64,000 bases of DNA from Salarchaeum sp. III (GTDB lineage: Archaea; Halobacteriota; Halobacteria; Halobacteriales; Halobacteriaceae): the NCBI RefSeq assembly GCF_036418315.1, contig NZ_JAZHPG010000024.1, positions 137,947 to 201,946 of the forward strand, in the 5' to 3' direction. Below the pieces are notes generated by a model, which ran no database searches, was not told where the DNA came from, and saw only the letters and a program-made list of their open reading frames with translations. Made by a program: the position numbers and the translations under genes. Of this stretch, positions 40,889 to 54,102 are shown in pieces (position 1 is the stretch's first letter; each line of letters starts with the position of its first letter).

Positions 40889-43024
40889 GTGCTATTTACA
40901 CTCAAGATACTTCGGTGGATACTCGGCCTATTCATCCGAATCATCACGTTCCCGTTCCGACTCGCCCGCCGTCTTCTCAGCAGTAACGCACGCAGCCGCG
41001 CGGCAGGCGCGTCAAGCGGATTCGGTGGCGGGTCGGTCGCGTCGACCATCACGGACCAACTGTCGAACAACCCGAACGTCGTCGCGCGCGGCAGCAACGC
41101 GCTCCTCACCGTCGCCGCGTTCCACGCCCTCGTCGCGGTCACCGGGGCGCTCTCCCTGGAGACGTTCTTCTTCCTCCGCGACCTCCTACCGACGACGCCG
41201 CTCGTGTTCGTCGTCGAATCCGCTCAGAGAGGACTGCTCTATCAGGACGCGCTCGCTTCGCTCCAGGGTGGTGTTCCGCCCGAACTCGTCGGCTACGCCG
41301 CCTACTTCGGCGCGTTCTTCTACGGCGTCACCGGGTACGGTCTGCGCCGGGGGAACTGGTACGCCGGTGTCGCGGGTACCGCCGTCGCGTTCGTCGGAAC
41401 ACTCACGCCGTTCCTCACGACGGGCGCGTCCCTGGTATCGGGCGTCCTCGGTCTCATCGCGTTCGTCAGCGCGGCGCGAGCCACGTACGCTGTCCGCGCG
41501 CTCGACGCGGGCACGCTCGCTCTCTCCAGTCCCGCGGCGTGGTCGCCGACGCGGCGGTTCACCGCGGTGTTCGCGGCGTTCACCGCCGGCGTGGCGGCCG
41601 AACCGTTCTTCATCGCGTTCACCGTCAACGTGCCCGCTGACCTCTGGTTCGTCCCCGCGACGCCGATCCCGTGGGTGCTCGTCGATCTGCTCGGCGTCCA
41701 ACTCTCGAACATTCTCGCCATCTACCTCGAACTGAGCGTGTTCGCCGCGGTCACCTACGGCCTCGCCCGGCGCTCGCAGGGCGCGTGGGTCGCCGCCGTC
41801 GGTCTCGGCGTGTTCGGCGTTCTCAGACCGTTGCTCGACCTCGGGTTCGCGGCCACATCGTGGGTGGCGATACTCGCCTCGCTCCTCGCGCTCGGCCTCG
41901 CGTACCAAGCGGGACCGTTCAACGGCCGGGACCGCGGTGCCCCAGACAGCGCACCTGCTCAGACGGCAGAGCGAGCGAGCGAGGGCGTCGACGAGAACAC
42001 CGGACCGGACTCAGCGGACCGGTCGGTGAGCGGGTCGTCGGACCCGGACGTGTCGGCAGCGTCCACGACGGCCGAGGCGGCCACATCGGACGCCCCCACG
42101 ACGGCTGACTCGACCGAATCAGCGCAGGCAGAACCGGCCGTATCCGAGTCTGTCTCGGCGGACGCGGCGACCGCCGAGACAGACGCGGCGGACCCGACGA
42201 ACGGCGGTACGGACGACGCGGACGTGCGCGACGACGACGACGAGCCAGCGCCGACGGTCGCCGCGGACGCCGTCGGACCGGCCGCGAGCGCGGTGGCGGC
42301 CGCGAACGACCGCGTAGTCTGCCTCACGGACGACGCGGCGGTCGCAGTGGACGACGACGGGGAACAGTGGCGGACACCCGGCTCGTACGTCGGCGTCGCG
42401 TGTCGCGGCGACCGAACGTATCTCGCGAGCGCGGACGGCGAGGTCACCGCGCTCGACGCCGACGGCGGGGACGCGTGGGTGTTCCCCCACCAGTTCAGCA
42501 AGCCGACCGCGGCCGGCCCGGTCGTCGCGGACGGCGCGGTCGTCGCGGCGAGCGAGGACGGTCGGGTCGCCGCGCTCGCGCCCGACCGAGGGGATGTCGC
42601 GTGGAACGCGTACCTCGACGCCGCCCCGAGCGCGCTCGCCCCGACCGGCCGCGGCGTGTACGCCGCCCGGACGGACGACATCACGGCGGTCGACGCCGAC
42701 GGCGTCACGTCGGTGGGGCCGGTCGAGAACGCAATCGGTCTGGCGAGTGTCGGCGACACGGTCGTCGCGGCGACAACCGACCGCGTGACGGGTGTGCGCG
42801 ACGGCGCGGAGGCCTGGACGACGGACGTGTCCGACCCGGTCGCGGTCGAGACGACTGGCGACGCGGCGGTCGTGGCGACCGCGGATGGTGACGTGACCGC
42901 GTTCGCCCCTGACGGAACGACAGCGTGGTCGTCCTCGGTCGACGCAACGGTGCGGGACCTCGCGGCCGACGAGGGCCGCGTCCTCGTCGCGACCGACAGC
43001 GGCGTCCACCCGCTCGAGCGGTAG
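40889..43024 (+). CDS. Membrane protein with C-terminal PQQ-like beta-propeller repeats
   Basis: 711 aa. N-terminal about 330 aa polytopic membrane domain. Roughly 130 aa acidic D/T/A/S-rich linker. C-terminal about 230 aa with repeated PQQ-like blades (DGEVTALDADGGDAW, DGRVAALAPDRGDVAW, etc.). No internal Met, so the N-terminal start is uncertain. Confidence 0.65.
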   Translation: MLFTLKILRWILGLFIRIITFPFRLARRLLSSNARSRAAGASSGFGGGSVASTITDQLSNNPNVVARGSNALLTVAAFHALVAVTGALSLETFFFLRDLLPTTPLVFVVESAQRGLLYQDALASLQGGVPPELVGYAAYFGAFFYGVTGYGLRRGNWYAGVAGTAVAFVGTLTPFLTTGASLVSGVLGLIAFVSAARATYAVRALDAGTLALSSPAAWSPTRRFTAVFAAFTAGVAAEPFFIAFTVNVPADLWFVPATPIPWVLVDLLGVQLSNILAIYLELSVFAAVTYGLARRSQGAWVAAVGLGVFGVLRPLLDLGFAATSWVAILASLLALGLAYQAGPFNGRDRGAPDSAPAQTAERASEGVDENTGPDSADRSVSGSSDPDVSAASTTAEAATSDAPTTADSTESAQAEPAVSESVSADAATAETDAADPTNGGTDDADVRDDDDEPAPTVAADAVGPAASAVAAANDRVVCLTDDAAVAVDDDGEQWRTPGSYVGVACRGDRTYLASADGEVTALDADGGDAWVFPHQFSKPTAAGPVVADGAVVAASEDGRVAALAPDRGDVAWNAYLDAAPSALAPTGRGVYAARTDDITAVDADGVTSVGPVENAIGLASVGDTVVAATTDRVTGVRDGAEAWTTDVSDPVAVETTGDAAVVATADGDVTAFAPDGTTAWSSSVDATVRDLAADEGRVLVATDSGVHPLER

Positions 43025-43077: not shown

Positions 43078-43353
43078 ATGCCGCACCGCTCCGGCGCGTC
43101 GCACGCCGCGGCCGCGCTCGCCACCGTCGTCGTCGGCGGTCTGCTCTCCGATCTCGTCGCAACGCTGGTCGGCGGCGCGGGACTCGTCGACGCTACAGTC
43201 GCAGCCGTTCAGTCCCCGCTCGGGCCGCTCGGATCGTCCGCGGCGGCCGTCACCATGCACGTCGCCGTCATCGTCGTGCTCGCGTTCGTCTGGGGGTACG
43301 CATACCACATCCGGACGTTCGGACGGGAGGACGACGACTGGCGGCGTCGCTAG
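43078..43353 (+). CDS. Small membrane protein (hypothetical)
   Basis: 91 aa MPHRSGASHAAAALATVVVGGLLSDLV... with two TM helices. ATG at 43078. Confidence 0.35.
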   Translation: MPHRSGASHAAAALATVVVGGLLSDLVATLVGGAGLVDATVAAVQSPLGPLGSSAAAVTMHVAVIVVLAFVWGYAYHIRTFGREDDDWRRR

Positions 43354-44441
43354 GAGAGACTCGGGTCTACATCGTCAAGTGCCGCCCGAAGGTGCGCGTC
43401 CGTTATCTCCTCGACGCGCCCGCTCTCCCGAGCATCCGCGAGCGCGAACCGCGCCGCCGTCGCGGCGAGGAGTTCCATGTCGCTCGCAACGTACCCCTCG
43501 GTGTCCGCCGCGATCGCTGGGACGTCCGCGTCGTCAGCGACAGGACGGTCGCGAAGGTGGACGCGGAGAATCGCTTCGCGCGCCGCCGCGTCCGGCGGCG
43601 AGACCTCGATGCGTTCGTCGAAACGCCCCGAGCGCGTGATGGCATCGTCGACAGCGTCGAGGAGATTGGTCGCCGCGACGACGACCACGTCCTCGCCCTG
43701 TATCTCCGAGAGCTCCGTGAGTAACTGGTTCACCATCTGCCGCTCGCTCTGCGTCGCGCGCGCGCCGTCCGACCGCGCTCCCGCGACGGCGTCCACCTCG
43801 TCAATGAACACCAGACACGGCTGGTTCGCGCGCGCAGTCTCGAACACGGCCGCGACGTTATCCGCGGCTTCCCCGACCAGGGAACTCGTCACGTCCGCGG
43901 GCGTCACCTCCACGACGTTGTAGCCGAGTTCGCCGGCGAGCGCCCGCGTCACGTACGTCTTCCCGGTCCCGGGCGGACCGTAGAGCAGGACGCCGTTCAC
44001 CACGCCGAGGTCGTAGGTCTCGTAGAGCTCGGGGTTCGAGAGCGGTTCGACGACGCGCTCGCGCAGCCGGTCCTTCAACGCAGCCATCCCGCCGACATCG
44101 TCGAACGCGAGCGAGGGCGGATCCGAGAGGAATCGGCCCGCATCCGCCGTGTCGGCGTCTCCATCAATCGGTTCCGACCCCGTCGACCGGTCAGTCGAAC
44201 CGTCGGACCGGTCCGTAACCTGATCCGCCGCGGTCCGAAGGTTCTCCGCGAGCGACCGCCGCTCGGCAGCCATCTCCTCGCTCCCCTCCAGGTCCGCGAT
44301 AGCGTCGAGCAGGCGCGCACACTCCTCGTACCGGCGGCGCGCCCGCTCTCCGTTCCCCGTCTCGCGGGCGCGGTCGGCCATCGAGCGGCGCTCCCGGTAC
44401 CGCTTCACGAGCACTTCCTTTTGCGCGCCGTCCCCGAGCAT
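43350..44441 (-). CDS. Vps4-like AAA+ ATPase (MIT-like N-terminal helices, linker, single AAA domain)
   Basis: AAA core LLYGPPGTGKT, VFIDEVDA, SRN region. N-terminal about 100 aa are helical (RARRRYEECARLLDAIADLEG...) then a flexible acidic linker, the Vps4/spastin architecture. Alternative start at M21 (44381). Directly downstream of the Snf7-like gene with no gap. Confidence 0.7.
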   Translation of the reverse strand: MLGDGAQKEVLVKRYRERRSMADRARETGNGERARRRYEECARLLDAIADLEGSEEMAAERRSLAENLRTAADQVTDRSDGSTDRSTGSEPIDGDADTADAGRFLSDPPSLAFDDVGGMAALKDRLRERVVEPLSNPELYETYDLGVVNGVLLYGPPGTGKTYVTRALAGELGYNVVEVTPADVTSSLVGEAADNVAAVFETARANQPCLVFIDEVDAVAGARSDGARATQSERQMVNQLLTELSEIQGEDVVVVAATNLLDAVDDAITRSGRFDERIEVSPPDAAAREAILRVHLRDRPVADDADVPAIAADTEGYVASDMELLAATAARFALADARESGRVEEITDAHLRAALDDVDPSLS

Positions 44442-45086
44442 CTACAGGTCGTCAAGCGCGTCGTTCGAATCGAGGTCGATCGACTCGGCGTCCACATCCA
44501 TGTCGTCCTCGATGTCTATCTGTTCGCTCGACACATCGGCCGCCGCGAGCTGCTCCATTCGCGTCTCCTCTTCGTCCGTGTCCATCGCGATCTCCGCGTC
44601 CATGATGGGGACGTCGAGCGCGGACTGTATCTCCTGTAAGTCCTCGACTTCGACGCCGAACTCCGCCATCCGGTCGAGGATTTCGGACTGTATTTCGGCG
44701 GCGTCAGCGTCCTCGAGCGCGTCATCGACCGCAAGCGCCTCTTCGTCGCGCGAGGACGTTATCTCCCGCATTCCCTGAACGGAGAGCAGCGTCCCGAGTT
44801 TCACGCTCTTCGCCCGGTACTGCTTCTTCTTGATGGCGTACTTCTTCTTCTCGAACTTCGCCTTCTGGGCGTACTTCGTCCGCCGGAGGTCGCTGGCGTC
44901 CGCGCCCTGTTCGAGGAGGGTGCGGTAGGTGGTCGCGTGGTCGTCCATTTCGCCTTCGAGCTTTTCGAGGCGGTGTTCCAGCTTGATAACGTCCTTGCGG
45001 AGTTCGTCGTCGCCGTACACCGACTCGTCGAGTATCGTCGCCCCCGACCCGCCGAACGTCTCGGTGACCCAGCCTTGGAGATTCAT
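44442..45086 (-). CDS. Snf7/ESCRT-III-like coiled-coil protein (putative)
   Basis: 214 aa. Basic N-terminal helices (LRRTKYAQKAKFEKKKYAIKKKQYRAKSVKLGTLLSVQ resembles the Snf7 core RKKRYEKQLAQIDGTLSTIE). Acidic C-terminal half ending in a D/L-rich tail. Forms an operon with the MIT-AAA ATPase. Confidence 0.5.
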   Translation of the reverse strand: MNLQGWVTETFGGSGATILDESVYGDDELRKDVIKLEHRLEKLEGEMDDHATTYRTLLEQGADASDLRRTKYAQKAKFEKKKYAIKKKQYRAKSVKLGTLLSVQGMREITSSRDEEALAVDDALEDADAAEIQSEILDRMAEFGVEVEDLQEIQSALDVPIMDAEIAMDTDEEETRMEQLAAADVSSEQIDIEDDMDVDAESIDLDSNDALDDL

Positions 45087-45220
45087 GACGTATCAGCCGG
45101 TGTGGTACCCGGTGTCGTGTCTAGCTGGCCTGTCCCGTTCCTTAACTGTTTCTCCGGTGAGGGGTCGGTGGCGGGGAACACTTTTGCGCGTCGGCGTGGA
45201 CACTCCGACGAGTTCAGGAG

Positions 45221-46921
45221 ATGACGAGTCCCACCGACCGCATCGACGACATCACCGCGTCCGTGGACGCCGTGGTATCCAGGGACCTCGACGCGCTCGC
45301 CGACTGGTCAGCGTCGGAGCGCGTCGACCGGTACGAACGGCTCGCGGACGAAGAACGCGAGTTCGTGGCAGCGTTCACCGGCCCGCACGCGGACTTCCTC
45401 ACCGACGCGGAGCGTGCTCGCATCCGCGCCGACATCGTGCTCGCCCGGCTCTTCCTCGCAGCGAGCTTCGACGACGAATCGCGTCCCAGCCCGCTTGACA
45501 GCGAGTTCTCGGACCGAGAGCTTCAGGCAGTCGCGGACTTCGACCGCTACAAAGCGTTCGACGCGCTCGACCCCGACGGCGTGGCGGATAGAATCGAACG
45601 CATGGACGGCGAGCTCTACGAACTCGTCCGGGACTACCACGACACGCAGCTCGCGGACCTCGACGCCCTCCTGACCGCCGACGACGTCCACCGTGACGTC
45701 ATGGACCGGCTGGCCGACCGCTACCACGACCGCCTGGAGACGGTTCGGGCGGGCGTGTTCGCGTACGTCGAGTCACACGGACTCACTCGCGCGATGGACG
45801 AGGTCGAGTCGGCGGTTCGGGCGACCGCGGACGCGGCGGCGGAGCGCCGTGCCGCCACGGAACCGCTCGACGGGCGCGTGAGCGCGGACGACGCGGACGC
45901 GCTCGACAGCTACGTCGAGACGCTGAACGAGCGCATCGAGAGACTCGACGACACGAGACGCGACCTCGACGCACTCTCCGTGCCCGAGGACTCCGACGCG
46001 GGCGCGGTCGTGGACGCGGAGCGAGAGCGTCTCGACGACGCGAGACGCGACCTGACGGCGGCGCGGTCGCGCGCGGCGCTCGAACGCGACCGCCGCACCG
46101 CCGCCACCCCCGGCGAAACCGTCGCGCCCGTGTCGGCGTCGCTCGCACGCGTGTTCGAACTCGACTACCTCGGCCGGTTCGACACGTCGATGCGGGACGC
46201 GGACACCCTCGTTACCCCGGACGGCTCCGTAACGGCGCCCGCGGACGAGGCGGGCGAGAGCGCCGTACGCGACGCTCGCCGGTTCTTCGAGAACCGCGAT
46301 GTCGACCCGGACGCGATGCCGCGGAACCGCCACGTTCGCTACGAACTCGGGAACGACGGCGTGTTCTCGTTCGCGCGCGACCCGACGTTAGTCGTACAGG
46401 TCGCGTGCCACGCGTCCCTCGACGCCTACGTTGACAGCGGGTTCGACGACCGCCCGGCCGGCCTCCGAGACGTACTTGACGTGCTTGCGCCCGTCGTCGA
46501 GGACGCGGAACGCGACGACACGCACTACCTCGTCGCGGTCGCGTCGCCGACCGGCTGGAGCGCTGACGCCCGGGAGACGGTTACCGGCGACACCCCGCGG
46601 TCGCGGTTCGGCGCGAGCGTCAGCGTCTGCCTCGTCGACCTCCGCGAGGGCGCGCTCCACTACGACGACGGCGACCCGGTCGTCGACGAGAACAGCCACC
46701 TCTTCGAACACGGCGTGGACGACGAGCGCATCGACGAGTGCACGGCCGCCGTCAGGGAGCGCGTCACCGACCCGTCGGCGACCCACGTCCGCCTCGCGGA
46801 TGTCGCAGCGGACGGGTACGCGGACCGCGTCGTCCGCCGCGCGTTCGACCGGCTCGCGGCGGACGGGTACGGAACGGTCGTCGATGTCGAGGGACACGGG
46901 CTCTGTCTCAGCGCGGACTAG
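45221..46921 (+). CDS. Large acidic hypothetical protein, divergent from the Snf7-like gene
   Basis: 566 aa. Helical/coiled-coil N-terminal half and a C-terminal domain of unknown fold. GC3-rich. Confidence 0.5.
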   Translation: MTSPTDRIDDITASVDAVVSRDLDALADWSASERVDRYERLADEEREFVAAFTGPHADFLTDAERARIRADIVLARLFLAASFDDESRPSPLDSEFSDRELQAVADFDRYKAFDALDPDGVADRIERMDGELYELVRDYHDTQLADLDALLTADDVHRDVMDRLADRYHDRLETVRAGVFAYVESHGLTRAMDEVESAVRATADAAAERRAATEPLDGRVSADDADALDSYVETLNERIERLDDTRRDLDALSVPEDSDAGAVVDAERERLDDARRDLTAARSRAALERDRRTAATPGETVAPVSASLARVFELDYLGRFDTSMRDADTLVTPDGSVTAPADEAGESAVRDARRFFENRDVDPDAMPRNRHVRYELGNDGVFSFARDPTLVVQVACHASLDAYVDSGFDDRPAGLRDVLDVLAPVVEDAERDDTHYLVAVASPTGWSADARETVTGDTPRSRFGASVSVCLVDLREGALHYDDGDPVVDENSHLFEHGVDDERIDECTAAVRERVTDPSATHVRLADVAADGYADRVVRRAFDRLAADGYGTVVDVEGHGLCLSAD

Positions 46922-46922
46922 C

Positions 46923-47447
46923 TCACTGCTCGCGCCCGCACTCCGGGCACGTCGCGGCTCCGCCGAGGTCGGTTCCACAGTACACGCAGAACGACTGGCC
47001 CGCGTCGCTTCCGGACGGCTCGGCGGATTCACGAGGACCGTCGTCGGTCGCGCCGACGCGCGAGTTCTGGACGACGGAGTCCTCGACGGTCGCGCCGTCG
47101 CCGTCCCCGCCGATAGCGGAGTCCTTCACGACGCTGTCGCTCACCGTCGTGGACGCGTCCGTAACGGTCGTCGAATCGTCGGTGACAGTCGTCGAGTCGT
47201 CCACGGACACCGACGTCGTTGACTCCACGGACTTCGTCTGGTCGCCCGAGACGACATCACCGCTTCCCGACGAGTCGACGTTCGAGAGCGCGTCCGCGAC
47301 GAGGTCGTCGACGCCGCTCGCGTCGTCGCCCGTGCCGTCATCGCTCGGTTCGGTGCCGACACCGGGGTCGGAGACTTCCGGGTCGTCGCCCGCACAGTCG
47401 GGGCACGTCCCCGTGTAGACGCGGTCGTGATCGGCGCAGTACGGCAC
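46923..47447 (-). CDS. Double zinc-ribbon protein with central STT-rich beta-repeat region
   Basis: 174 aa. N-term CADHD...CPDC and C-term CVYCG...CPECG. Centre has DDSTTVTDDSTTVTDASTTVSDSVVKDSAIGGD repeats resembling those at the C-terminus of the upstream gene. Confidence 0.5.
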   Translation of the reverse strand: MPYCADHDRVYTGTCPDCAGDDPEVSDPGVGTEPSDDGTGDDASGVDDLVADALSNVDSSGSGDVVSGDQTKSVESTTSVSVDDSTTVTDDSTTVTDASTTVSDSVVKDSAIGGDGDGATVEDSVVQNSRVGATDDGPRESAEPSGSDAGQSFCVYCGTDLGGAATCPECGREQ

Positions 47448-48643
47448 TACTCCTCACCCTCGTCGTCGCCGATGTCGGAGCGGTTCACGACGGAGTCCTC
47501 GACCGTCGTGGATTCGTCAATCTCGGTCGTGGATTCGTCAATCTCGGTCGTGGACTGGTCGATCTTAGTGAACTCCTCCTGCGACACCGTCTTCTCCTGG
47601 TCGCCGACGACGATGTCGCCCTCGCCCGCGTGCTCGATGGTCGGCGTGCCCTCCGCGCCGAGGTCCGCGTACCCACCGTACCGGAACTGTTCGACGTCCG
47701 GCGGGTCGGCGCGGAACGACCGCACGTGTCGTTCGAGCAGCGACCGGACGTACGCGTGCTCGGATTCGGACTCGTTGACCGTGCGCCACGCTCGCGACGC
47801 CACCGCGCCCTCGCCCGCGTCCCGCACGTCCGCGCTCGTGAGACAGTCACCGGCCGCCCAGAGGTCGTCCTCCTCGAGCATCCAGGGGCCGACCGCGACG
47901 CTGCCGAGGTCGCCGTCGTCGCTCACGGTCGCGAGCGTCGCGGAGTCGAGCACAGCGACCTCGTCCGCGAGCACCACATCGCCGTCGAGCGACCTGACGA
48001 CAGGGTTCACGACCGCAGTCTCCGCGCCGAGCGTCACGTCGTCGCGCGCCACGACGGAGAACGCGAGCAGCGAACTCGCCTCCAGCAGCCCCCGGGACTT
48101 CACATCCCCGAGGACGACGAGCGGGGCGTCCGCTCGCACCGTGTTCTCGGCGATAACGTTCCCGTACACGACGAGCGGGCGGTCAACCGTCACGTGGGAC
48201 GCGACGATATCGCCGTACACGACGACGGGGCGTTCCGTCCAGTCGTCGTGCTTCGCGTCGGCCGCCTCAACTGCGACCTCTCCCTCCGAAATGACCGACC
48301 CGCTGACGCGCGCGCCGACGAACGCCGGGTCGTCGTCCTCGCCTTCGAGCGCGGCGTGGCGTGCGCCGCCGTGTTCGATGACGACGCGGTCCCGGCCGAA
48401 CACGGTCCCGTCAACTTGGACGCCGTACTTGCAGTCGACCTCCTGTGCGTAGATACCGACTTCCTCCTGCGGCCGGTACACCGCGCCCTTCTCCAGCGTG
48501 ACCTGCCAGTTCAGCTGCCGGAACGCGTTCTCGCGCGGAATGAGCGGCTCTTCGCACGTCTGGTCGGCCTTCACGGTCGCGAAGTTCGTGTTGTCAGTCT
48601 CGACCTTATCGGACGTGATAGCCCCGCGGAACTCGTCAGTCAT
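47447..48643 (-). CDS. Bactofilin-like beta-helix repeat protein
   Basis: 398 aa. Repeated xVVVYGDIVASHVTVDRPLVVYGNVIAENTVRADAPLVVLGDV units typical of the bactofilin (DUF583) beta-helix. C-terminal TTEIDESTTEIDESTT repeats. Start overlaps the downstream gene. Confidence 0.55.
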   Translation of the reverse strand: MTDEFRGAITSDKVETDNTNFATVKADQTCEEPLIPRENAFRQLNWQVTLEKGAVYRPQEEVGIYAQEVDCKYGVQVDGTVFGRDRVVIEHGGARHAALEGEDDDPAFVGARVSGSVISEGEVAVEAADAKHDDWTERPVVVYGDIVASHVTVDRPLVVYGNVIAENTVRADAPLVVLGDVKSRGLLEASSLLAFSVVARDDVTLGAETAVVNPVVRSLDGDVVLADEVAVLDSATLATVSDDGDLGSVAVGPWMLEEDDLWAAGDCLTSADVRDAGEGAVASRAWRTVNESESEHAYVRSLLERHVRSFRADPPDVEQFRYGGYADLGAEGTPTIEHAGEGDIVVGDQEKTVSQEEFTKIDQSTTEIDESTTEIDESTTVEDSVVNRSDIGDDEGEE

Positions 48644-49619
48644 CCGCGCTCACCCCGGTTCGCCGCGACCGGAGTTCGTACTCGTCGAACGCCTCGCGGA
48701 ACCGCTCGCTCGTGGCGTCGTCCGGGAGGACCGACGCGTCCGAGAAGGCGCGGTCCTCATCAGCTAATCCGTCCCGGACCGCGTCCCGCTGCACGTACTC
48801 GGCGACCGTGTCGGTCAGGTCGCCGTACGCGTGCGTTCCGTGCTCGGAGAGGTAGCTCGCGTACGGGGACGACCGCGTCGGCCGGTGCTCGGGGCTGTCG
48901 CGTTCCAGCACCGGTAACACCCGTATCTCCTCCGTGCCGTTCCGCTCGATACCGACAACCCAGAACGGAACGTGAACGCTCTGCGCGCCGGACACCCCGG
49001 AGACCGACGTCTGCAGGGAGTCGATTGTTTTCGCGGTCCCCTCGCGGTGCGCGAGGAAATCGTCGATGGCGTCCATGAACTCCGTTCGGCTCTCCGAGAT
49101 AGCTGTGAGGCGGTCGTCGTACGTCTCCGTCGCTGGCTCGGCGAGGTCCTCGCTCACCGAGGTCACGCTCTCGCGGCGTTTCACGACGTCCGCAAACTCC
49201 TCGGACACCTGCTCGAACGCGTCGTTCTCCGTCGATATCGAGTTCAGGAACCGGTCTTTCAGCCGGCGGATGCTCTCCTGGTAATCCCGCAGCACGTCGC
49301 TGATACGCTCCTCGTACTGGCGGCGTTTCTCCTCGACCGTCTCCTTCAGGTCGTCCTTCAGGTCGGCGGTCGCTTCCCGCTGCGCGCGCGCCTTCGTCCG
49401 CTCTATCTGCGTGACGCGGTTCTCCAGCTGTTCGATGTTGGTCTGCAGGGACTCGATGGATTGACGCGTGCGCTCCAGTTCGTCCGAGACCGTGGTGTCG
49501 AGCGAGTTGACTTGGTTTTCGAGCCCGGTCGTGTCCACGTCCACGCGACTCCCGATGCGTTGGGCAAGGTCGCTCGAACTCCGCTTCGTGAGTTCCACCG
49601 GCTGCGTGTCGTCCGCCAT
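48636..49619 (-). CDS. Coiled-coil protein (hypothetical)
   Basis: 327 aa. Long heptad-like charged helices (LENQVNSLDTTVSDELERTRQSIESLQTNIEQLENRVTQIE). Overlaps the bactofilin-like gene by 8 nt. Confidence 0.5.
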   Translation of the reverse strand: MADDTQPVELTKRSSSDLAQRIGSRVDVDTTGLENQVNSLDTTVSDELERTRQSIESLQTNIEQLENRVTQIERTKARAQREATADLKDDLKETVEEKRRQYEERISDVLRDYQESIRRLKDRFLNSISTENDAFEQVSEEFADVVKRRESVTSVSEDLAEPATETYDDRLTAISESRTEFMDAIDDFLAHREGTAKTIDSLQTSVSGVSGAQSVHVPFWVVGIERNGTEEIRVLPVLERDSPEHRPTRSSPYASYLSEHGTHAYGDLTDTVAEYVQRDAVRDGLADEDRAFSDASVLPDDATSERFREAFDEYELRSRRTGVSADD

Positions 49620-49620
49620 C

Positions 49621-51174
49621 TCAGAGTTCCTCCTCGACGGTTCGCGCCGCCTCGTACTCCGATTTCACCGTGCTGTACTCCCGCTCCGCCGCGTCCTTCA
49701 TCTGCTCGAACTGGCTCACGTCTATCATCTTCTGTTCTTTGTTCTGCCGGATGTCCTCCGCGTCGCGCTCCAAGTCGTCCACGCTGTCCATGATCGGTTC
49801 GCGGAAGGAGTAGAAGAGGCTGCGCCACACCTCCCCGAACACGACGCCGTCGCGGTGCACGCTGTGCGTCCCGTCACCGTCGTACGCTCGGTCGTACGTG
49901 CCGTCCGGTCCGATGTCGGGCGCGGTCGTGTACGCGTCCGCGAGGTCGTCGTTCAGTGTCGGGATGCGGTTCTCGATGTCCGCGCGTATCTGCTCCGTGA
50001 ACGACCCCTCGCCGTCGACATCGAGTCGGTCGAGGTCGCGGTCGCTCAGCGCTGTGCCGAGACTGCCGGAGTCCGGGCTCAGTATCTCGCTCGTCAGGTC
50101 GAGTTCGTCGTCGATGGCGGCGAGGCGGTCCGCGTGCTCGGCCGCGTCGACGTGTTTTTTCACGCTCTGGTCGAGCGTTCGCTCGTACGCGTCGAAATGC
50201 TCGGTGAGTACGCGCTCGTTCTGCTGGAGGCGTGACGCGACGGAGCGTGACAGGGAGTCCACGCGGTCGCGGTGAGCGCGCGCCTCGTCGAGGAGGTCGC
50301 CGCTCGTCGCCTGCTCTTCGAGTCCACGAATCGTCGAGACGACGTTCTCGCTCTCCGCGAGCGAGTTCGTCGTCTCCACCGCCGGGAGTTCGTTCGTGTT
50401 CAGGAACGTTCCCTGGTCACCGGCGGTCGAGAGGCTGTTCGACACGGTATCGTTCGCGTGCACCCGAACCTGCACGGATTCAGTGTGGAGGTCGCGCGCG
50501 ATTGCGGCCATCCGGTCGATCTCGTCCGTCAGCGGTTTCTCCAATCGGCCGTGCTCTCGCACGCCGGGCGCGATTTCGCTCGCGACAGCGGGGTCGAGGA
50601 CGCCCGCGTCCGATAATCCGTCGTCGTAGACGCTCGCGGCGTCCGCGAGCGCGCTCGACGCGTCCGCGAGCGCGGCACCGTCGACATTCGCGAGTTCCAG
50701 GTCGGTGACGGGCGCGGCGTTCCGCCCGTCGAAAATCATGTGTCGGTCGCCGTACGGGACGAGGTGGAACGGGTACGTCACCTGAGAGATGAACGAAACG
50801 CTCCCGTCGGGTTCGTTCTCCGCGAGGTTCTGTTCGGCGTCTTCGATGGCGTCTTCGGCGTTCTGGTACTCGCGGTACGCGTACGCCGCCGAGGCAGCGG
50901 CGGTGAGGACGCCGACAACCGCCCCGATAAGGGCGAACTCGAGGAAGACGCCGGCGACGAGGACGAGCACGCCGATAGCGACCCCGCCAGCGCCGAGTTT
51001 TCGCATACGGTCGCGGCGGTCCTCCGCGTCCGCGATGTCGTCCTCGTAGCTCGCGCGACGTTCGAAAAACCCGCCTGCCGCCGTGTCGAATGCGCTCGCG
51101 AGGACTTCGGTGCTGGCGCGTGCCTCGTCGACACCGTCCCCTCGTTCGATAATCCCTGGTAGCCTGCGTGCCAT
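49621..51174 (-). CDS. Membrane-anchored coiled-coil protein (hypothetical)
   Basis: 517 aa. One or two TM helices near the N-terminus (VAIGVLVLVAGVFLEFALIGAVVGVLTAAASAAYAY) followed by a long charged helical region. 1-nt spacing to the next gene. Confidence 0.5.
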   Translation of the reverse strand: MARRLPGIIERGDGVDEARASTEVLASAFDTAAGGFFERRASYEDDIADAEDRRDRMRKLGAGGVAIGVLVLVAGVFLEFALIGAVVGVLTAAASAAYAYREYQNAEDAIEDAEQNLAENEPDGSVSFISQVTYPFHLVPYGDRHMIFDGRNAAPVTDLELANVDGAALADASSALADAASVYDDGLSDAGVLDPAVASEIAPGVREHGRLEKPLTDEIDRMAAIARDLHTESVQVRVHANDTVSNSLSTAGDQGTFLNTNELPAVETTNSLAESENVVSTIRGLEEQATSGDLLDEARAHRDRVDSLSRSVASRLQQNERVLTEHFDAYERTLDQSVKKHVDAAEHADRLAAIDDELDLTSEILSPDSGSLGTALSDRDLDRLDVDGEGSFTEQIRADIENRIPTLNDDLADAYTTAPDIGPDGTYDRAYDGDGTHSVHRDGVVFGEVWRSLFYSFREPIMDSVDDLERDAEDIRQNKEQKMIDVSQFEQMKDAAEREYSTVKSEYEAARTVEEEL

Positions 51175-51188
51175 TGTGTAACAGAGTA

Positions 51189-51416
51189 ATGTCTGATAAC
51201 GTGATAGATAAAGCTAGGGTGGGAGAACGCTTACCCGGGGACGGCGTGAACGTTTCGAGGATGCAAGTTCAGATCCAATCGTTCGACTACGACGCGACCA
51301 AAATAGCCGAGATGGAAGACAAACTCAACACCGTCCTGTCCCACTACGACGTGGTCGACACGACGATAACCCGGCGCGAGGACGAATTGCTCGTGTTCGT
51401 GTTCTACGAGGAGTGA
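51189..51416 (+). CDS. Small hypothetical protein (weak call)
   Basis: 75 aa from MSDNVIDKARV. Lies in the AT-richer 230-bp gap between two minus-strand genes, which may instead be promoter. GC3 signal only in the second half. Confidence 0.25.
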   Translation: MSDNVIDKARVGERLPGDGVNVSRMQVQIQSFDYDATKIAEMEDKLNTVLSHYDVVDTTITRREDELLVFVFYEE

Positions 51417-53218
51417 GGGAGTTCCGCGCGGCAGGACGTACAGAAGTTGTTTCCAGGCGGCTGTTCCGAGCCGCACTCGGAGCACAGCACGGTCTCCCGG
51501 CCGCCACTCGGCTCGGCGGCCCCACCATCCGATCCGCCGGGGTCTCCCCCCTGCACGATAGTCGTGTCACCGCCGCTCGACCCCGAATCCCCGCTGACGA
51601 TGACGTTGTCCGACGTGTCCTCGGCGGCCGCTGACGCCGCGTCCCCCATCTGGTCCATCGCGGTCTCCGTCGTCGACTCCATGCGGTCCATCGAATCCGA
51701 CGCCATCTCCTTCAGCTCCTCCCGGAACTCCTTCTGGTCTTCCACGCGTTCTCGCTCCTTCTCGGCGCTGTTCGCCTCCTGCCGCGCCTTCGCTAGCTCG
51801 TCCGAGTTCTGCGCGCCGAGCGAGTCGAGTTGGTCGGCGGAGAGGTTCTCGGCCTTGTCCATCTTCGCCAGGTCGGTCATTCCGTCATCGGTATCGTCGA
51901 GGCTGGCGAGCGTCTGCGCGTCCACGTCGTCGCGGGCGTCGAGGCGTTCCTTTTCGAGGTCGAGGTCGTGCTCCTCGCGGTCCATCTCCATCTCCTGCTC
52001 GCGGCGCTCGCGCTCGAGCTTCTGCTCGTCCTTCTTCGACTTGACATCGAGCAAGTCCTCCATCTCCGAGACGTCCTGCTCGTGCTCGACCTCCCGGCGC
52101 TCCACCTCGCTCTCCGTCCGCGTCGTCTTCAACTCCTCCTCGTGCTCCACGGTCTCCCGTTCGGCCGTGTGTTCGTGTTGGCGGCCCGCGTCCTCGACCT
52201 CGTGGCGCTGTTCCTGTCGCTGCCGTTCGAGTTCGTGGTCCGCCGACGCCTCGGCGGACTCCTCGCGGAACTCCTGTTTGGTCTCGTGGACCGAATCCTC
52301 GGTTTCGCGCTCGCGCTCGCGGCGGTCGAGCCGGGACTCGTCGTCCCGGATGTCCTCGCGTTCCTCCCGGACCGCCACGTCCCGCTGGTCCGACCGAATC
52401 TCGTCGCGGCCGTCGTCGTAGTCGAACGCGCGGAGTCGCACGAGGGAGAGCCCGAGGTCTGAGAGCACCGCGCGGCACTCCTCGTCGATGTCAGACTGGA
52501 GCGATTGCTTGACATCGCGGTTCCCGTAGAGGTTGTCGCGTTCGACCGAAGAGAGCGTTGCGCGAACCTCGTCACGGAGCGCGTCCTCCAGCAGGCGCTT
52601 GACGGCTTCCGTCGTGACGGCGTTCCGGTCAGCCATCGCCGCGCGGAAGAACGCCTCGGCGTCATCGAGGGACACGTCGAGGTCGACCGTGACGGAGACG
52701 GGGAACCCGTCCGCGGTCCGCACGTCGTCCACGGTCAGCGACAGCGGCACGTCGGCGTCCTCCACGAGCACGACCGTGATGTCCTTCGAGCGCCGGCGTT
52801 CGAGCAGTCGCTCTCCGAGACTGTCGAGCGTGTGTTTGCCCGGGCCGAGCGCCTTCACGAGTTCGCCGTGTTCGAGGAGTAACGCCCGATTACCGGCCTC
52901 TATCTGCACGCTCTTCTTCTGCGTGAGGCGGCCGATGAGACCGCCCTCGCCGAGCACGTCCTCGTCGACGCGTTTCGCGAGTTCGTTGTCCGCGAGCCGC
53001 ATCGACCCGTCCGTCCGCCCCTCCGCCGGACTGCCGTCGTCGGCGGCGGACGGCAGGACGAGCTCGACCCCGCAGCGACCGCAAAACCCCTTCTCTCCGC
53101 CGTAGGATTGCCCGCAGTCCGGACACACTTTCGTGAGAGGGTCGCCGCACGAGCCGCAGAAGTTCCCGCCCTGTACCGTATCGCCGCAGTGTGGACACGT
53201 TGATGGCATCGTACTCAC
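51404..53218 (-). CDS. Double zinc-ribbon, SPFH/band-7-like, long charged coiled-coil protein (flotillin-like architecture)
   Basis: 604 aa. N-term CPHCG...CGSCG...CPDCG...CGRCG. Then an SPFH-like region (...VKRLLEDALRDEVRATLSSVERDNLYGNRD...LSLVRLRAFDYDDG). About 250 aa E/R/D-rich coiled coil. C-term CSECG...CTSCR. Confidence 0.6.
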   Translation of the reverse strand: MSTMPSTCPHCGDTVQGGNFCGSCGDPLTKVCPDCGQSYGGEKGFCGRCGVELVLPSAADDGSPAEGRTDGSMRLADNELAKRVDEDVLGEGGLIGRLTQKKSVQIEAGNRALLLEHGELVKALGPGKHTLDSLGERLLERRRSKDITVVLVEDADVPLSLTVDDVRTADGFPVSVTVDLDVSLDDAEAFFRAAMADRNAVTTEAVKRLLEDALRDEVRATLSSVERDNLYGNRDVKQSLQSDIDEECRAVLSDLGLSLVRLRAFDYDDGRDEIRSDQRDVAVREEREDIRDDESRLDRRERERETEDSVHETKQEFREESAEASADHELERQRQEQRHEVEDAGRQHEHTAERETVEHEEELKTTRTESEVERREVEHEQDVSEMEDLLDVKSKKDEQKLERERREQEMEMDREEHDLDLEKERLDARDDVDAQTLASLDDTDDGMTDLAKMDKAENLSADQLDSLGAQNSDELAKARQEANSAEKERERVEDQKEFREELKEMASDSMDRMESTTETAMDQMGDAASAAAEDTSDNVIVSGDSGSSGGDTTIVQGGDPGGSDGGAAEPSGGRETVLCSECGSEQPPGNNFCTSCRAELPHSS

Positions 53219-53289
53219 CGGATCGGGGGCATCGCCCCAGTTTTGCTAGACACTCTGTAGCGTATCCCTTAAGTTTTGTCTCCGTAGTG

Positions 53290-54102
53290 TCAGATGTCGG
53301 CGTCTGCGCGCCGGTAGAGGCGAACGACCCGGTCGGCGACCGCCCGAATCCGGCGGCGGCGGTCCTCGTCCATCGGCGCATCCGAGAGGGCGGCCAGCTG
53401 CGAATCGAGACTGGCGAGGTCGTCCAGTACGTCCGCGTACGCGCCGTCCTCCACGGGGTGTTCTGCGACGAACTCGCGCAGTTCCCCGGCACGCTCCCGG
53501 GCACTCGACCGACCGTCGTCGGCGGCCGCCGCAAGGTGTTCGGCGAGCGACTGCGCGAGATACGCGTCGGCCCCACTCTCGGACCCCGAACTGCTCGGCG
53601 TACCGCCCGCGTCGAGAGTGTGAAGGAGGTCCTGCGCGCGCTCGCGTTCCCGCCGCCGCGTCGCCCCCGTCGCCACCTCCGTGAGCGCGTCCCGGACTGA
53701 CTCCCGAACGCCCGGGTCGGCCGTCTCGTCGGCGACGCGGGCGAGCGCGTTCAGTGCGTCGAGCCGGTCACGCCCCCGCCGGTCGCCCGTTGCTATCGCA
53801 CGCAGCGTCTCCACTGTGGCTGCAGCGCGCGGGGAGTCCGCCGTGAGGTCGACGAGCGTCTCGCGCGCGGTCTGCCGTTCCGTCGACCGCATCGCGTCCT
53901 GCGCCACGGTGGAGAGCGTGCGCAGTATCCGTTCTCGGTTCGCGTCCGTTGCGTCGACGTAGAGGTCGTTGAGCCGGTCGAGCGCGCGCTCGCGTTCCCC
54001 GCTGTATCGTCCGTCCCGAGCCGTCTCACAGCAGGCGGCGACGGCATCGTCACCCACGACCCACCACCACGAATCCAGTGTGAGCCATTGACACGACCTC
54101 AC
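53290..54102 (-). CDS. Hypothetical helical-repeat (HEAT/PBS-lyase-like) protein
   Basis: 270 aa of repeated about 30-aa helical units (RDALTEVATG..., RETLVDLTAD..., LRTLSTVAQD...). N-terminal extent uncertain. Confidence 0.45.
   Translation of the reverse strand: MRSCQWLTLDSWWWVVGDDAVAACCETARDGRYSGERERALDRLNDLYVDATDANRERILRTLSTVAQDAMRSTERQTARETLVDLTADSPRAAATVETLRAIATGDRRGRDRLDALNALARVADETADPGVRESVRDALTEVATGATRRRERERAQDLLHTLDAGGTPSSSGSESGADAYLAQSLAEHLAAAADDGRSSARERAGELREFVAEHPVEDGAYADVLDDLASLDSQLAALSDAPMDEDRRRRIRAVADRVVRLYRRADADI

Follow-up and report, generated by a model that had tools for sequence, protein, structure and literature searches.

ESCRT-type genes cluster with a candidate scaffold operon in Salarchaeum sp. 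III and other Halobacteria

In a 64,000-nt stretch of DNA from Salarchaeum sp. III (the window; its 398-aa β-helix protein has a 100% identical counterpart in that genome), positions 43350–54102 carry nine genes, encoding a HEAT-like helical-repeat protein, an SPFH protein, a transmembrane (TM) coiled-coil protein, a soluble coiled-coil (CC) protein, a β-helix protein, a zinc-ribbon (ZnR) protein, a 566-aa protein, a Snf7-like protein and an AAA ATPase, together with a small gene for a protein of 51 aa. We propose, with middling confidence and partly by analogy to known recruitment systems, that this region is a composite conserved module of two sub-modules, in which a scaffold encoded by sub-module B would target the SPFH/ESCRT-III/Vps4 machinery encoded by sub-module A. 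[quoted passage not shown] Sub-module B is an operon of genes for proteins of 517, 327, 398 and 174 aa plus the divergent 51-aa gene; its first three members, the hairpin coiled-coil, coiled-coil and β-helix genes, are referred to below as the triad. The Snf7/Vps4/SPFH part is already known (PMC10936438). The triad operon, the zinc-ribbon protein, the 51-aa gene, a sequence motif shared between components, and the spread of the triad with SPFH and kinase genes appear to be undescribed, and bactofilin, ESCRT-III and SPFH were not found together in the literature searched.

The proposal is founded on gene order. A scan of 185,579 species genomes for the β-helix family yielded four loci, and nine more came from a scan of metagenomes. 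At least four loci contain homologues of all nine genes together: L002 (a Haloarculaceae metagenome-assembled genome, MAG), L003 (Halosimplex marinum), L005 (a Salinarchaeum MAG) and L007 (a metagenome contig). Conserved synteny in other Halobacteria, proposed at the outset as a check, does exist. Haloplanus litoreus (L004) has eight of the nine, a 566-aa homologue not being found within the stretch fetched. The order varies: in L002, L003 and L007, genes in the order Snf7>AAA>SPFH>HEAT are divergent from TM>CC>β-helix>ZnR; L004, L005 and the Haloplanus halophilus chromosome (L016; judged by gene sizes) share the order SPFH>TM>CC>β-helix>ZnR>HEAT; in L010, the AAA gene is immediately upstream of the TM gene. 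Within Halobacteria, the operon is found beside SPFH/HEAT or AAA genes in every locus with enough flanking sequence, in at least four arrangements, and an all-against-all comparison of the open reading frames (ORFs) of the loci revealed no other conserved genes. Such retained linkage despite rearranged order is strong evidence for a functional connection of the nine genes.

The same comparison redraws the boundaries of the unit. The first-pass annotation, made from the letters of the window, had described five minus-strand genes, from the SPFH gene to the gene of the 174-aa zinc-ribbon protein, as one module rather than unrelated genes. The ORFs match the lengths and spacings that it gave (among the last four genes, a gap of 1 nt and then overlaps of 8 nt and 1 nt), and the functional linkage is upheld by synteny, but the five-gene unit was wrongly drawn and really belongs to two sub-modules. 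The order Snf7>AAA>SPFH>HEAT, found in L002, L003, L007 and Natronolimnobius baerhuensis (L015), assigns the SPFH gene to the ESCRT set and leaves the other four genes as a separate operon. The N. baerhuensis locus contains orthologues of the 566-aa (37–42% identity), Snf7-like (61%), AAA (56%), SPFH (54%) and HEAT-like (36%) proteins and no trace of the four operon genes or the 51-aa gene. In family clusters, ESCRT-III-like sequences are the most numerous (205, vs 44 for the β-helix and 40 for the TM coiled-coil family), which suggests that sub-module B is an accessory of sub-module A. All eight cluster genes comparable with the relative L006 (76% nucleotide identity), namely the five minus-strand genes, the HEAT-like gene, the 566-aa gene and the 51-aa ORF, have ratios of non-synonymous to synonymous substitution rates (dN/dS) of 0.07–0.41, indicating purifying selection. 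For the module as a whole we infer a cytoskeletal or membrane-remodelling function, as the first-pass annotation had suggested.

Sub-module A is centred on two adjoining minus-strand genes. The gene of the 363-aa Vps4-like AAA+ ATPase (43350–44441) starts directly where the stop codon of the gene of the 214-aa ESCRT-III/Snf7-like protein (44442–45086) ends. The ATPase matches Pfam AAA with 132 bits, its N-terminal ~100 residues were judged helical by eye, and it shares 56% identity with the ATPase that N. baerhuensis encodes next to arCOG07402 and that has been classed as Vps4, arCOG01307 (PMC10936438). Against the NCBIfam CdvC model it scores 139.5 bits over residues 19–326, under the cut-off of 650, and the FtsH, PAN and Cdc48 models score higher. 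The 214-aa protein is 61% identical to P0074 of N. baerhuensis, encoded upstream of Vps4, and a protein of N. baerhuensis is listed under arCOG07402, the "ESCRT-III/Snf7 family" (PMC10936438). Its putative identity as an ESCRT-III protein is taken from this published assignment and from where its gene lies; the charge pattern, with a basic patch at residues 61–100 (net charge +11) and an acidic C-terminal half, fits ESCRT-III.

The SPFH/zinc-ribbon protein is encoded at 51404–53218 on the minus strand (604 aa from a GTG start at 53218); an independent gene call uses the ATG at 53209, giving 601 aa, and this is likely the true start. As predicted at first pass, it contains an SPFH domain (Pfam Band_7, residues 105–296; 41.2 bits vs a gathering cut-off of 23.6) and zinc ribbons (DZR at residues 8–50, 39.1 bits; a further zinc ribbon at residues 579–596), together with a long charged helix and an acidic low-complexity region. 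A membrane anchor of its own, as in flotillins or HflK/C, was not detected, no 19-residue window reaching a Kyte-Doolittle mean of 1.6, and the protein is therefore predicted to be soluble, like Bacillus subtilis YdjI. With the SPFH protein encoded beside Vps4 in N. baerhuensis it shares 54% identity; arCOG15283, listed as an "ESCRT system component", is represented in N. baerhuensis by WP_087715646 (PMC10936438).

Two further proteins complete the set. The HEAT-like helical-repeat protein is encoded just upstream on the minus strand (53290–54102, 270 aa; the start is likely at 54057, giving 255 aa), and the repeats proposed for it are borne out by profile matches to the designed helical repeat DHR14 (2.5e-18) and the HEAT repeats of PP2A PR65 (3.9e-5). 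Its orthologues lie within the module in L002–L007, L011, L015 and L016. The 566-aa protein (45221–46921, plus strand) consists of a helical N-terminal domain, a variable coiled coil and conserved C-terminal domains, and has orthologues of 34–68% identity in L002, L003, L005, L006, L007, L008 and L015; it had no Pfam match, and a profile search of the PDB gave coiled-coil noise only. Its gene had been called divergent, which holds relative to the Snf7-like gene, but it is convergent with the five minus-strand genes. Homologues of arCOG08177 occur in L002, L004, L005, L007 and L015 and adjoin the 566-aa homologue in all of these but L004. This adjacency suggests that the 566-aa protein corresponds to arCOG09748, the "C-terminal wHTH ESCRT protein".

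The relation of sub-module A to published systems is close. Among archaeal ESCRT systems, the N. baerhuensis locus serves as the representative of the Halo_FHA clade (Makarova et al. 2024, mBio; PMC10936438), for which Vps4 (arCOG01307), ESCRT-III (arCOG07402), SPFH (arCOG15283), arCOG08177 and an FHA/CdvA-like protein (arCOG13166) are listed, with arCOG08177 (Cas2-like/TBD), a Ser/Thr kinase and PP2C as partners in only some loci (PMC10936438). It has the same five core genes as the window, and its order Snf7>AAA>SPFH>HEAT is that of L002, L003 and L007. The window differs by adding the four-gene operon and the 51-aa gene, both absent from N. baerhuensis; among the Halo_FHA components drawn from the survey (PMC10936438), none corresponds to the triad. 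Searches of the 64-kb window by tblastn found neither arCOG08177 nor PP2C, both of which occur in related loci, and with the FHA-like proteins of L002 and L005 as queries they matched no more than the shared motif, in the genes of the 174-aa and 398-aa proteins; no kinase was present among the Pfam-scanned cluster genes or in the Pfam list for the surrounding 21 kb. Full-length FHA-like homologues exist in L002, L005, L008 and L015, the first three of which also carry the operon. An FHA fold was looked for in the 271-aa N. baerhuensis protein and was not confirmed.

Sub-module B begins with the gene of the 517-aa membrane-anchored coiled-coil protein (49621–51174, minus strand). Residues 58–100 of this protein form the sole hydrophobic stretch of the module in a Kyte-Doolittle scan. 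In an AlphaFold model the stretch makes up the tip of a long hairpin of helices, after which come an α/β domain and long helices; a profile search of the PDB returned coiled-coil noise only. As a separate observation, 28 of 29 family members and the remote L014 homologue keep a CxxC...CxxH cluster, a putative zinc site, of which all four ligands (residues 343, 346, 428 and 431) are replaced in this genome by D, E, D and Y, and at least three in L006 by D, D and Y at the same positions.

The second gene (48636–49619, minus strand) encodes a 327-aa soluble protein with an N-terminal coiled coil and a conserved C-terminal domain bearing a VPFWVVG motif. It is conserved and collinear in every locus, the remote ones included, and gave just weak coiled-coil-type matches in Pfam and NCBIfam scans and in a PDB profile search. 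Paralogy of the 517-aa and 327-aa proteins was considered and rejected (hhalign probability 0.6%). The third gene (47447–48643, minus strand) encodes the 398-aa cytoplasmic β-helix protein, in which a β-helix of ~170 residues precedes a helical domain and a disordered tail that bears the shared motif. The fourth (46923–47447, minus strand), always directly after the β-helix gene, encodes a 174-aa protein with an N-terminal Cys/His knuckle, an acidic motif-containing linker and a C-terminal zinc ribbon; its cysteines are invariant in 12 orthologues, in agreement with the zinc-ribbon assignment made at first pass.

The tail of the 398-aa protein (DNA positions 47447–47600) reads ...GDIVVGDQEKTV...IDQSTTE IDESTTE IDESTTV EDSVVNRSDIG, that is, a series of IDxSTTx heptads closing in (V/E)DSVVNRSDIG. 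The same heptads and closing motif (DSVVxxSxIG) occur in the middle of the 174-aa protein (positions 47100–47260), in a family of zinc-knuckle/zinc-ribbon proteins and in the FHA-like/zinc-ribbon proteins of L002 (407–1180, minus strand), L005 (12624–13325), L008 (13039–13827, minus strand) and L015 (14999–15814); in two homologues, P0259 and P0267, a multi-TM N-terminus precedes the motif. The knuckle YCxxHxxxYxxxxCPxC, too, is common to the L002 FHA-like protein and the N-terminus of the 174-aa protein. The motif region is disordered in the AlphaFold monomer. The presence of one motif on such different heads (β-helix, FHA-like, multi-TM) suggests that it serves for docking to, or co-assembly with, a partner common to all of them.

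The operon seems to have its own promoter. A TATA-like element, TTTATC (51212–51207, minus strand), is placed 35 nt upstream of the start codon of the 517-aa gene (ATG at 51174), inside the 86-nt divergent region between the 517-aa and 51-aa genes, and an A/T-rich element of the type TTTAT[CG] recurs at the same distance in six of nine orthologous upstream regions. This conservation supports the separate promoter that had been proposed for the last four genes; a scan for bacterial-type promoters and terminators was uninformative for an archaeon.

The first two of the five minus-strand genes are indeed set apart, by 229 nt (a 230-bp gap had been noted), but the gap is not empty, as it contains the 51-aa gene (51261–51416, plus strand), whose 3' end overlaps that of the SPFH gene by 13 nt. 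This gene was called independently in three assemblies. Its product is found with 35–88% identity in ten of the 11 operon-carrying haloarchaeal loci L002–L012 (the exception being L012, a 5.3-kb contig), and also in L016; the gene is absent from N. baerhuensis, which lacks the operon as well. Its dN/dS of 0.07 relative to L006 is the lowest of the set. The protein is predicted to adopt a β-α-β-β arrangement and matched no family and no solved structure in the PDB; the possibility that it is a truncated Cas2-like arCOG08177 protein was rejected (hhalign probability 0.3%).

The triad also occurs beyond Halobacteria. Its gene order is kept in metagenome lineages of non-halophilic character (L013/14, L019, L020, L022/23 and L024/25; G+C content 37–58%), with hidden Markov model (HMM) E-values of 1e-23 to 1e-55 for remote triad sequences that were outside model building, and the annotation of one distant family member gives a Thermoplasmatota MAG as its source. 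In L020 (289–7384), the triad is followed by a protein with Band_7 and double zinc ribbon and then by a Ser/Thr kinase; kinases also flank L019, L024 and L008. In L022, the genes after the triad encode first a GYF-domain protein and next a STAND-like NTPase.

We envisage that the 517-aa hairpin protein, the sole membrane-embedded part, would combine with the coiled-coil and β-helix proteins into a membrane-bound scaffold. The motif on the β-helix tail and the 174-aa protein (and on the FHA-like protein in related loci) would dock this scaffold to the SPFH or HEAT-like core, the soluble SPFH protein would recruit the ESCRT-III-like polymer to the membrane site of the scaffold, and the Vps4-like ATPase would remodel or recycle that polymer. 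The output would be local membrane remodelling, for repair or for vesicle/protein sorting. That the 517-aa protein alone is membrane-embedded, next to a soluble SPFH protein, suggests an anchoring role for it.

Several observations weigh against this proposal. L006, on a 12.6-kb contig that is collinear with the window on both sides and keeps the SPFH, HEAT-like and 566-aa genes and the operon, lacks window positions 43359–45240, exactly the ESCRT-III/Vps4 pair, and has ~137 bp instead (L006 10897–11032). The remote triad contigs (5–21 kb) contain no ESCRT-III or Vps4 gene, which implies that sub-module B can work without an adjacent ESCRT pair. The link between triad and SPFH is thus old and recurrent; that to ESCRT-III/Vps4 occurs in Halobacteria without being obligatory at locus level. 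As to the components, the Pfam scan of three ATPase orthologues showed no MIT domain, the N-terminal part with which Vps4/CdvC proteins bind C-terminal motifs of ESCRT-III, and the 214-aa protein had no match in Pfam, NCBIfam, PHROGs or PADLOC. Profiles of 6 and 30 sequences of its family, run against all PDB sequences, returned noise and no solved ESCRT-III or PspA, and hhalign comparison with sequences of yeast Snf7 and Escherichia coli PspA, which counts as a lead at most, was negative. The model of the 517-aa protein has a low predicted template modelling score (pTM 0.33, at a mean predicted local distance difference test score, pLDDT, of 71). Finally, that the motif docks or co-assembles with a common partner is something we infer purely from its distribution.

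The logic of the proposal has parallels in other systems. In B. subtilis, the soluble SPFH protein YdjI, which has a C-terminal zinc finger, depends on the membrane proteins YdjG and YdjH, and PspA in turn requires YdjI for reaching the membrane (PMC8581546); YdjGHI has been renamed SamGHI in a 2026 preprint (bioRxiv 10.64898/2026.02.06.704340). In that system, as would be the case here, membrane proteins bring an SPFH protein and an ESCRT-III-superfamily protein to the membrane, a likeness that is an analogy of logic and not of membership: the host is a bacterium, there is no Vps4-type ATPase, and no β-helix, coiled-coil or HEAT-like partner has been described. The Meth_adaptin system of Methanosarcinales-type methanogens such as Methanosalsum zhilinae likewise encodes an SPFH-coiled coil-zinc ribbon protein beside ESCRT-III and Vps4, but it differs in its adaptin-appendage, GOLD and ProX accessories, its ESCRT-III protein belongs to arCOG00454, and it has no triad (PMC10936438).

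A further parallel is the CdvA-CdvB-CdvC system. CdvA of Sulfolobales is a membrane-bound non-ESCRT polymer that recruits ESCRT-III, which is remodelled by the Vps4 homologue CdvC. The recruiter role of CdvA is that proposed here for the triad, although CdvA has no sequence or fold relation to it. In an extended and distinctly tentative form of our proposal, a polymer of β-helix and coiled-coil proteins, tethered by the hairpin, would act as a CdvA-like landing platform, and the docking motif together with an SPFH cage would direct cutting or mending by ESCRT-III/Vps4, in haloarchaea that divide by FtsZ and possibly in Thermoplasmatota. If this were true, the locus would represent a new class of ESCRT-targeting module, interchangeable with a phospho-dependent FHA-like adaptor that bears the same motif.

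Haloarchaeal ESCRT variants coexist with FtsZ division, and the function of euryarchaeal ESCRT systems was given in the published survey, by inference, as protein sorting or vesicle formation (PMC10936438). For such FtsZ-dividing cells, the present locus family provides defined, conserved candidates for the targeting of ESCRT-III/Vps4: the sole membrane-embedded component, two coiled-coil proteins, a β-helix protein, and a motif common to the FHA-like adaptor of sister loci. It also carries over to archaea a recurring pairing known from Bacillus PspA-YdjGHI, in which a soluble SPFH protein with a zinc finger goes with an ESCRT-III-superfamily protein, and defines a three-gene operon that is not confined to Halobacteria. 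The host organisms are not established genetic models, and the family searches returned no member from Haloferax volcanii.

The alternative that fares best is that the operon and the 51-aa protein form an independent, bactofilin-like cytoskeletal or cell-shape system that shares a neighbourhood with ESCRT-type genes and no joint function with them, which we consider unlikely. The distant triads without a visible ESCRT-III/Vps4 gene and the missing pair in L006 speak for it, and the first-pass annotation had called the 398-aa protein a bactofilin-like β-helix protein. Of that description, the fold class (β-helix) is right; membership in the Bactofilin family is unproven, as the protein does not reach Pfam Bactofilin (PF04519; E = 0.34, 11.6 bits vs a cut-off of 27.9) and fold searches did not recover bactofilin. 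An exhaustive HMM search with the β-helix family across 1.84 billion representatives gave 78 matches. Among 27 remote β-helix matches, ten have a Bactofilin domain (E ≤ 1e-3) and seven an LbH domain, a count that favours the independent system, as do NCBI and UniRef labels of some family members as "polymer-forming cytoskeletal protein"; among 21 distant members of the β-helix family, one has a Bactofilin domain. The 398-aa protein resembles bactofilins and the halofilins HalA/HalB (PMC11459167) in being cytoplasmic, in its disordered/terminal flanks and in a weak, transitive sequence similarity, but its β-helix of ~170 residues is longer than that of bactofilins and is trailed by a helical domain. 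The halofilin paper makes no link to ESCRT, SPFH or zinc-ribbon proteins (PMC11459167). Besides the shortfall in family membership, the rearranged haloarchaeal loci, which hold the operon beside SPFH/HEAT or AAA genes wherever flanks suffice, argue against independence; so do the recurrence of the triad-SPFH/zinc-ribbon link in the remote L020 and the tail motif common to the FHA-like protein of ESCRT loci.

Somewhat less probable again is a reading in which the module in its entirety serves, as an ESCRT system, to sort cargo or bud vesicles and the triad is its cargo or cargo adaptor, not an anchor or recruiter. It would agree with the sorting and vesicle formation inferred for haloarchaeal ESCRT variants that coexist with FtsZ division, and with the interpretation of variable accessories (FHA-like, PQQ, IG-like) as cargo binders (PMC10936438); PQQ-repeat proteins do lie near several of the loci. 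The triad, with dN/dS values of 0.11–0.22, is nevertheless far more conserved than would be expected of interchangeable cargo, and the confinement of the membrane-embedded segment to the 517-aa protein, beside a soluble SPFH protein, favours anchoring.

Improbable, and the weakest of the three, is antiviral defence or abortive infection, in which a scaffold acting as sensor would set off either disruption of the membrane, by way of the hairpin protein, or its repair during infection: the patchy spread of the β-helix family (the four loci among 185,579 species genomes), a match of the ATPase to the PADLOC IetA model (1e-38), weak similarity of the hairpin to SLATT (E = 0.009), holin and "4TM effector" proteins, a remote β-helix homologue beside BREX-like genes and the frequent Ser/Thr kinase neighbours are outweighed in that the IetA match is generic AAA similarity (the FtsH, PAN and Cdc48 models scoring higher) and no IetS or other protease accompanies it, the other components are at coiled-coil noise level in PADLOC, an effector of the nuclease, protease or NADase kind is missing from the module, housekeeping genes (HMG-CoA reductase, iPGM, NurA/HerA, RimK, succinate dehydrogenase) flank it in the window and in Haloplanus, and neither the β-helix nor the ESCRT-III-like protein had a tblastn match on 72,556 plasmids, nor the β-helix protein a match in 50,697 phage records, and IMG/VR contained no relative. 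On these same searches, an origin from a mobile element was rejected.

The BREX-like context of the remote β-helix homologue is that of L026 (2971–12090) and, in the same arrangement, L027, where this shorter protein (337 aa), surrounded by small uncharacterised genes, is encoded beside BREX-like defence genes: PglZ, a DUF1156 methyltransferase, DUF499 and a helicase. In N. baerhuensis (L015), an Orc1/Cdc6 gene (1314–2648) is ~7 kb away from the ESCRT locus, and the Halo_FHA locus of Halomicrobium mukohataei is on replicon NC_013201 (PMC10936438, Table S2); these are hints that Halo_FHA-type loci may reside on secondary replicons or islands in some genomes, while the window's proteins had no plasmid match.

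On its ATPase side, the module is flanked by a plus-strand gene (40889–43024) for a multi-TM protein with a PQQ-type β-propeller. PQQ-repeat proteins, some of them very large, are also encoded in L005 (538–2733), L006 (11437–12558), L007 (14777–20821) and L008 (3391–7212). The flanking PQQ proteins are 26–40% identical and their association with the module may be coincidence; in Halo_adaptin ESCRT loci, PQQ/WD40 propeller proteins are presumed cargo binders (PMC10936438). Between the ATPase and PQQ genes lies a 91-aa ORF (43078–43353, plus strand) without a family match, the DNA of which is conserved in L006 (72%) and not in the other loci.

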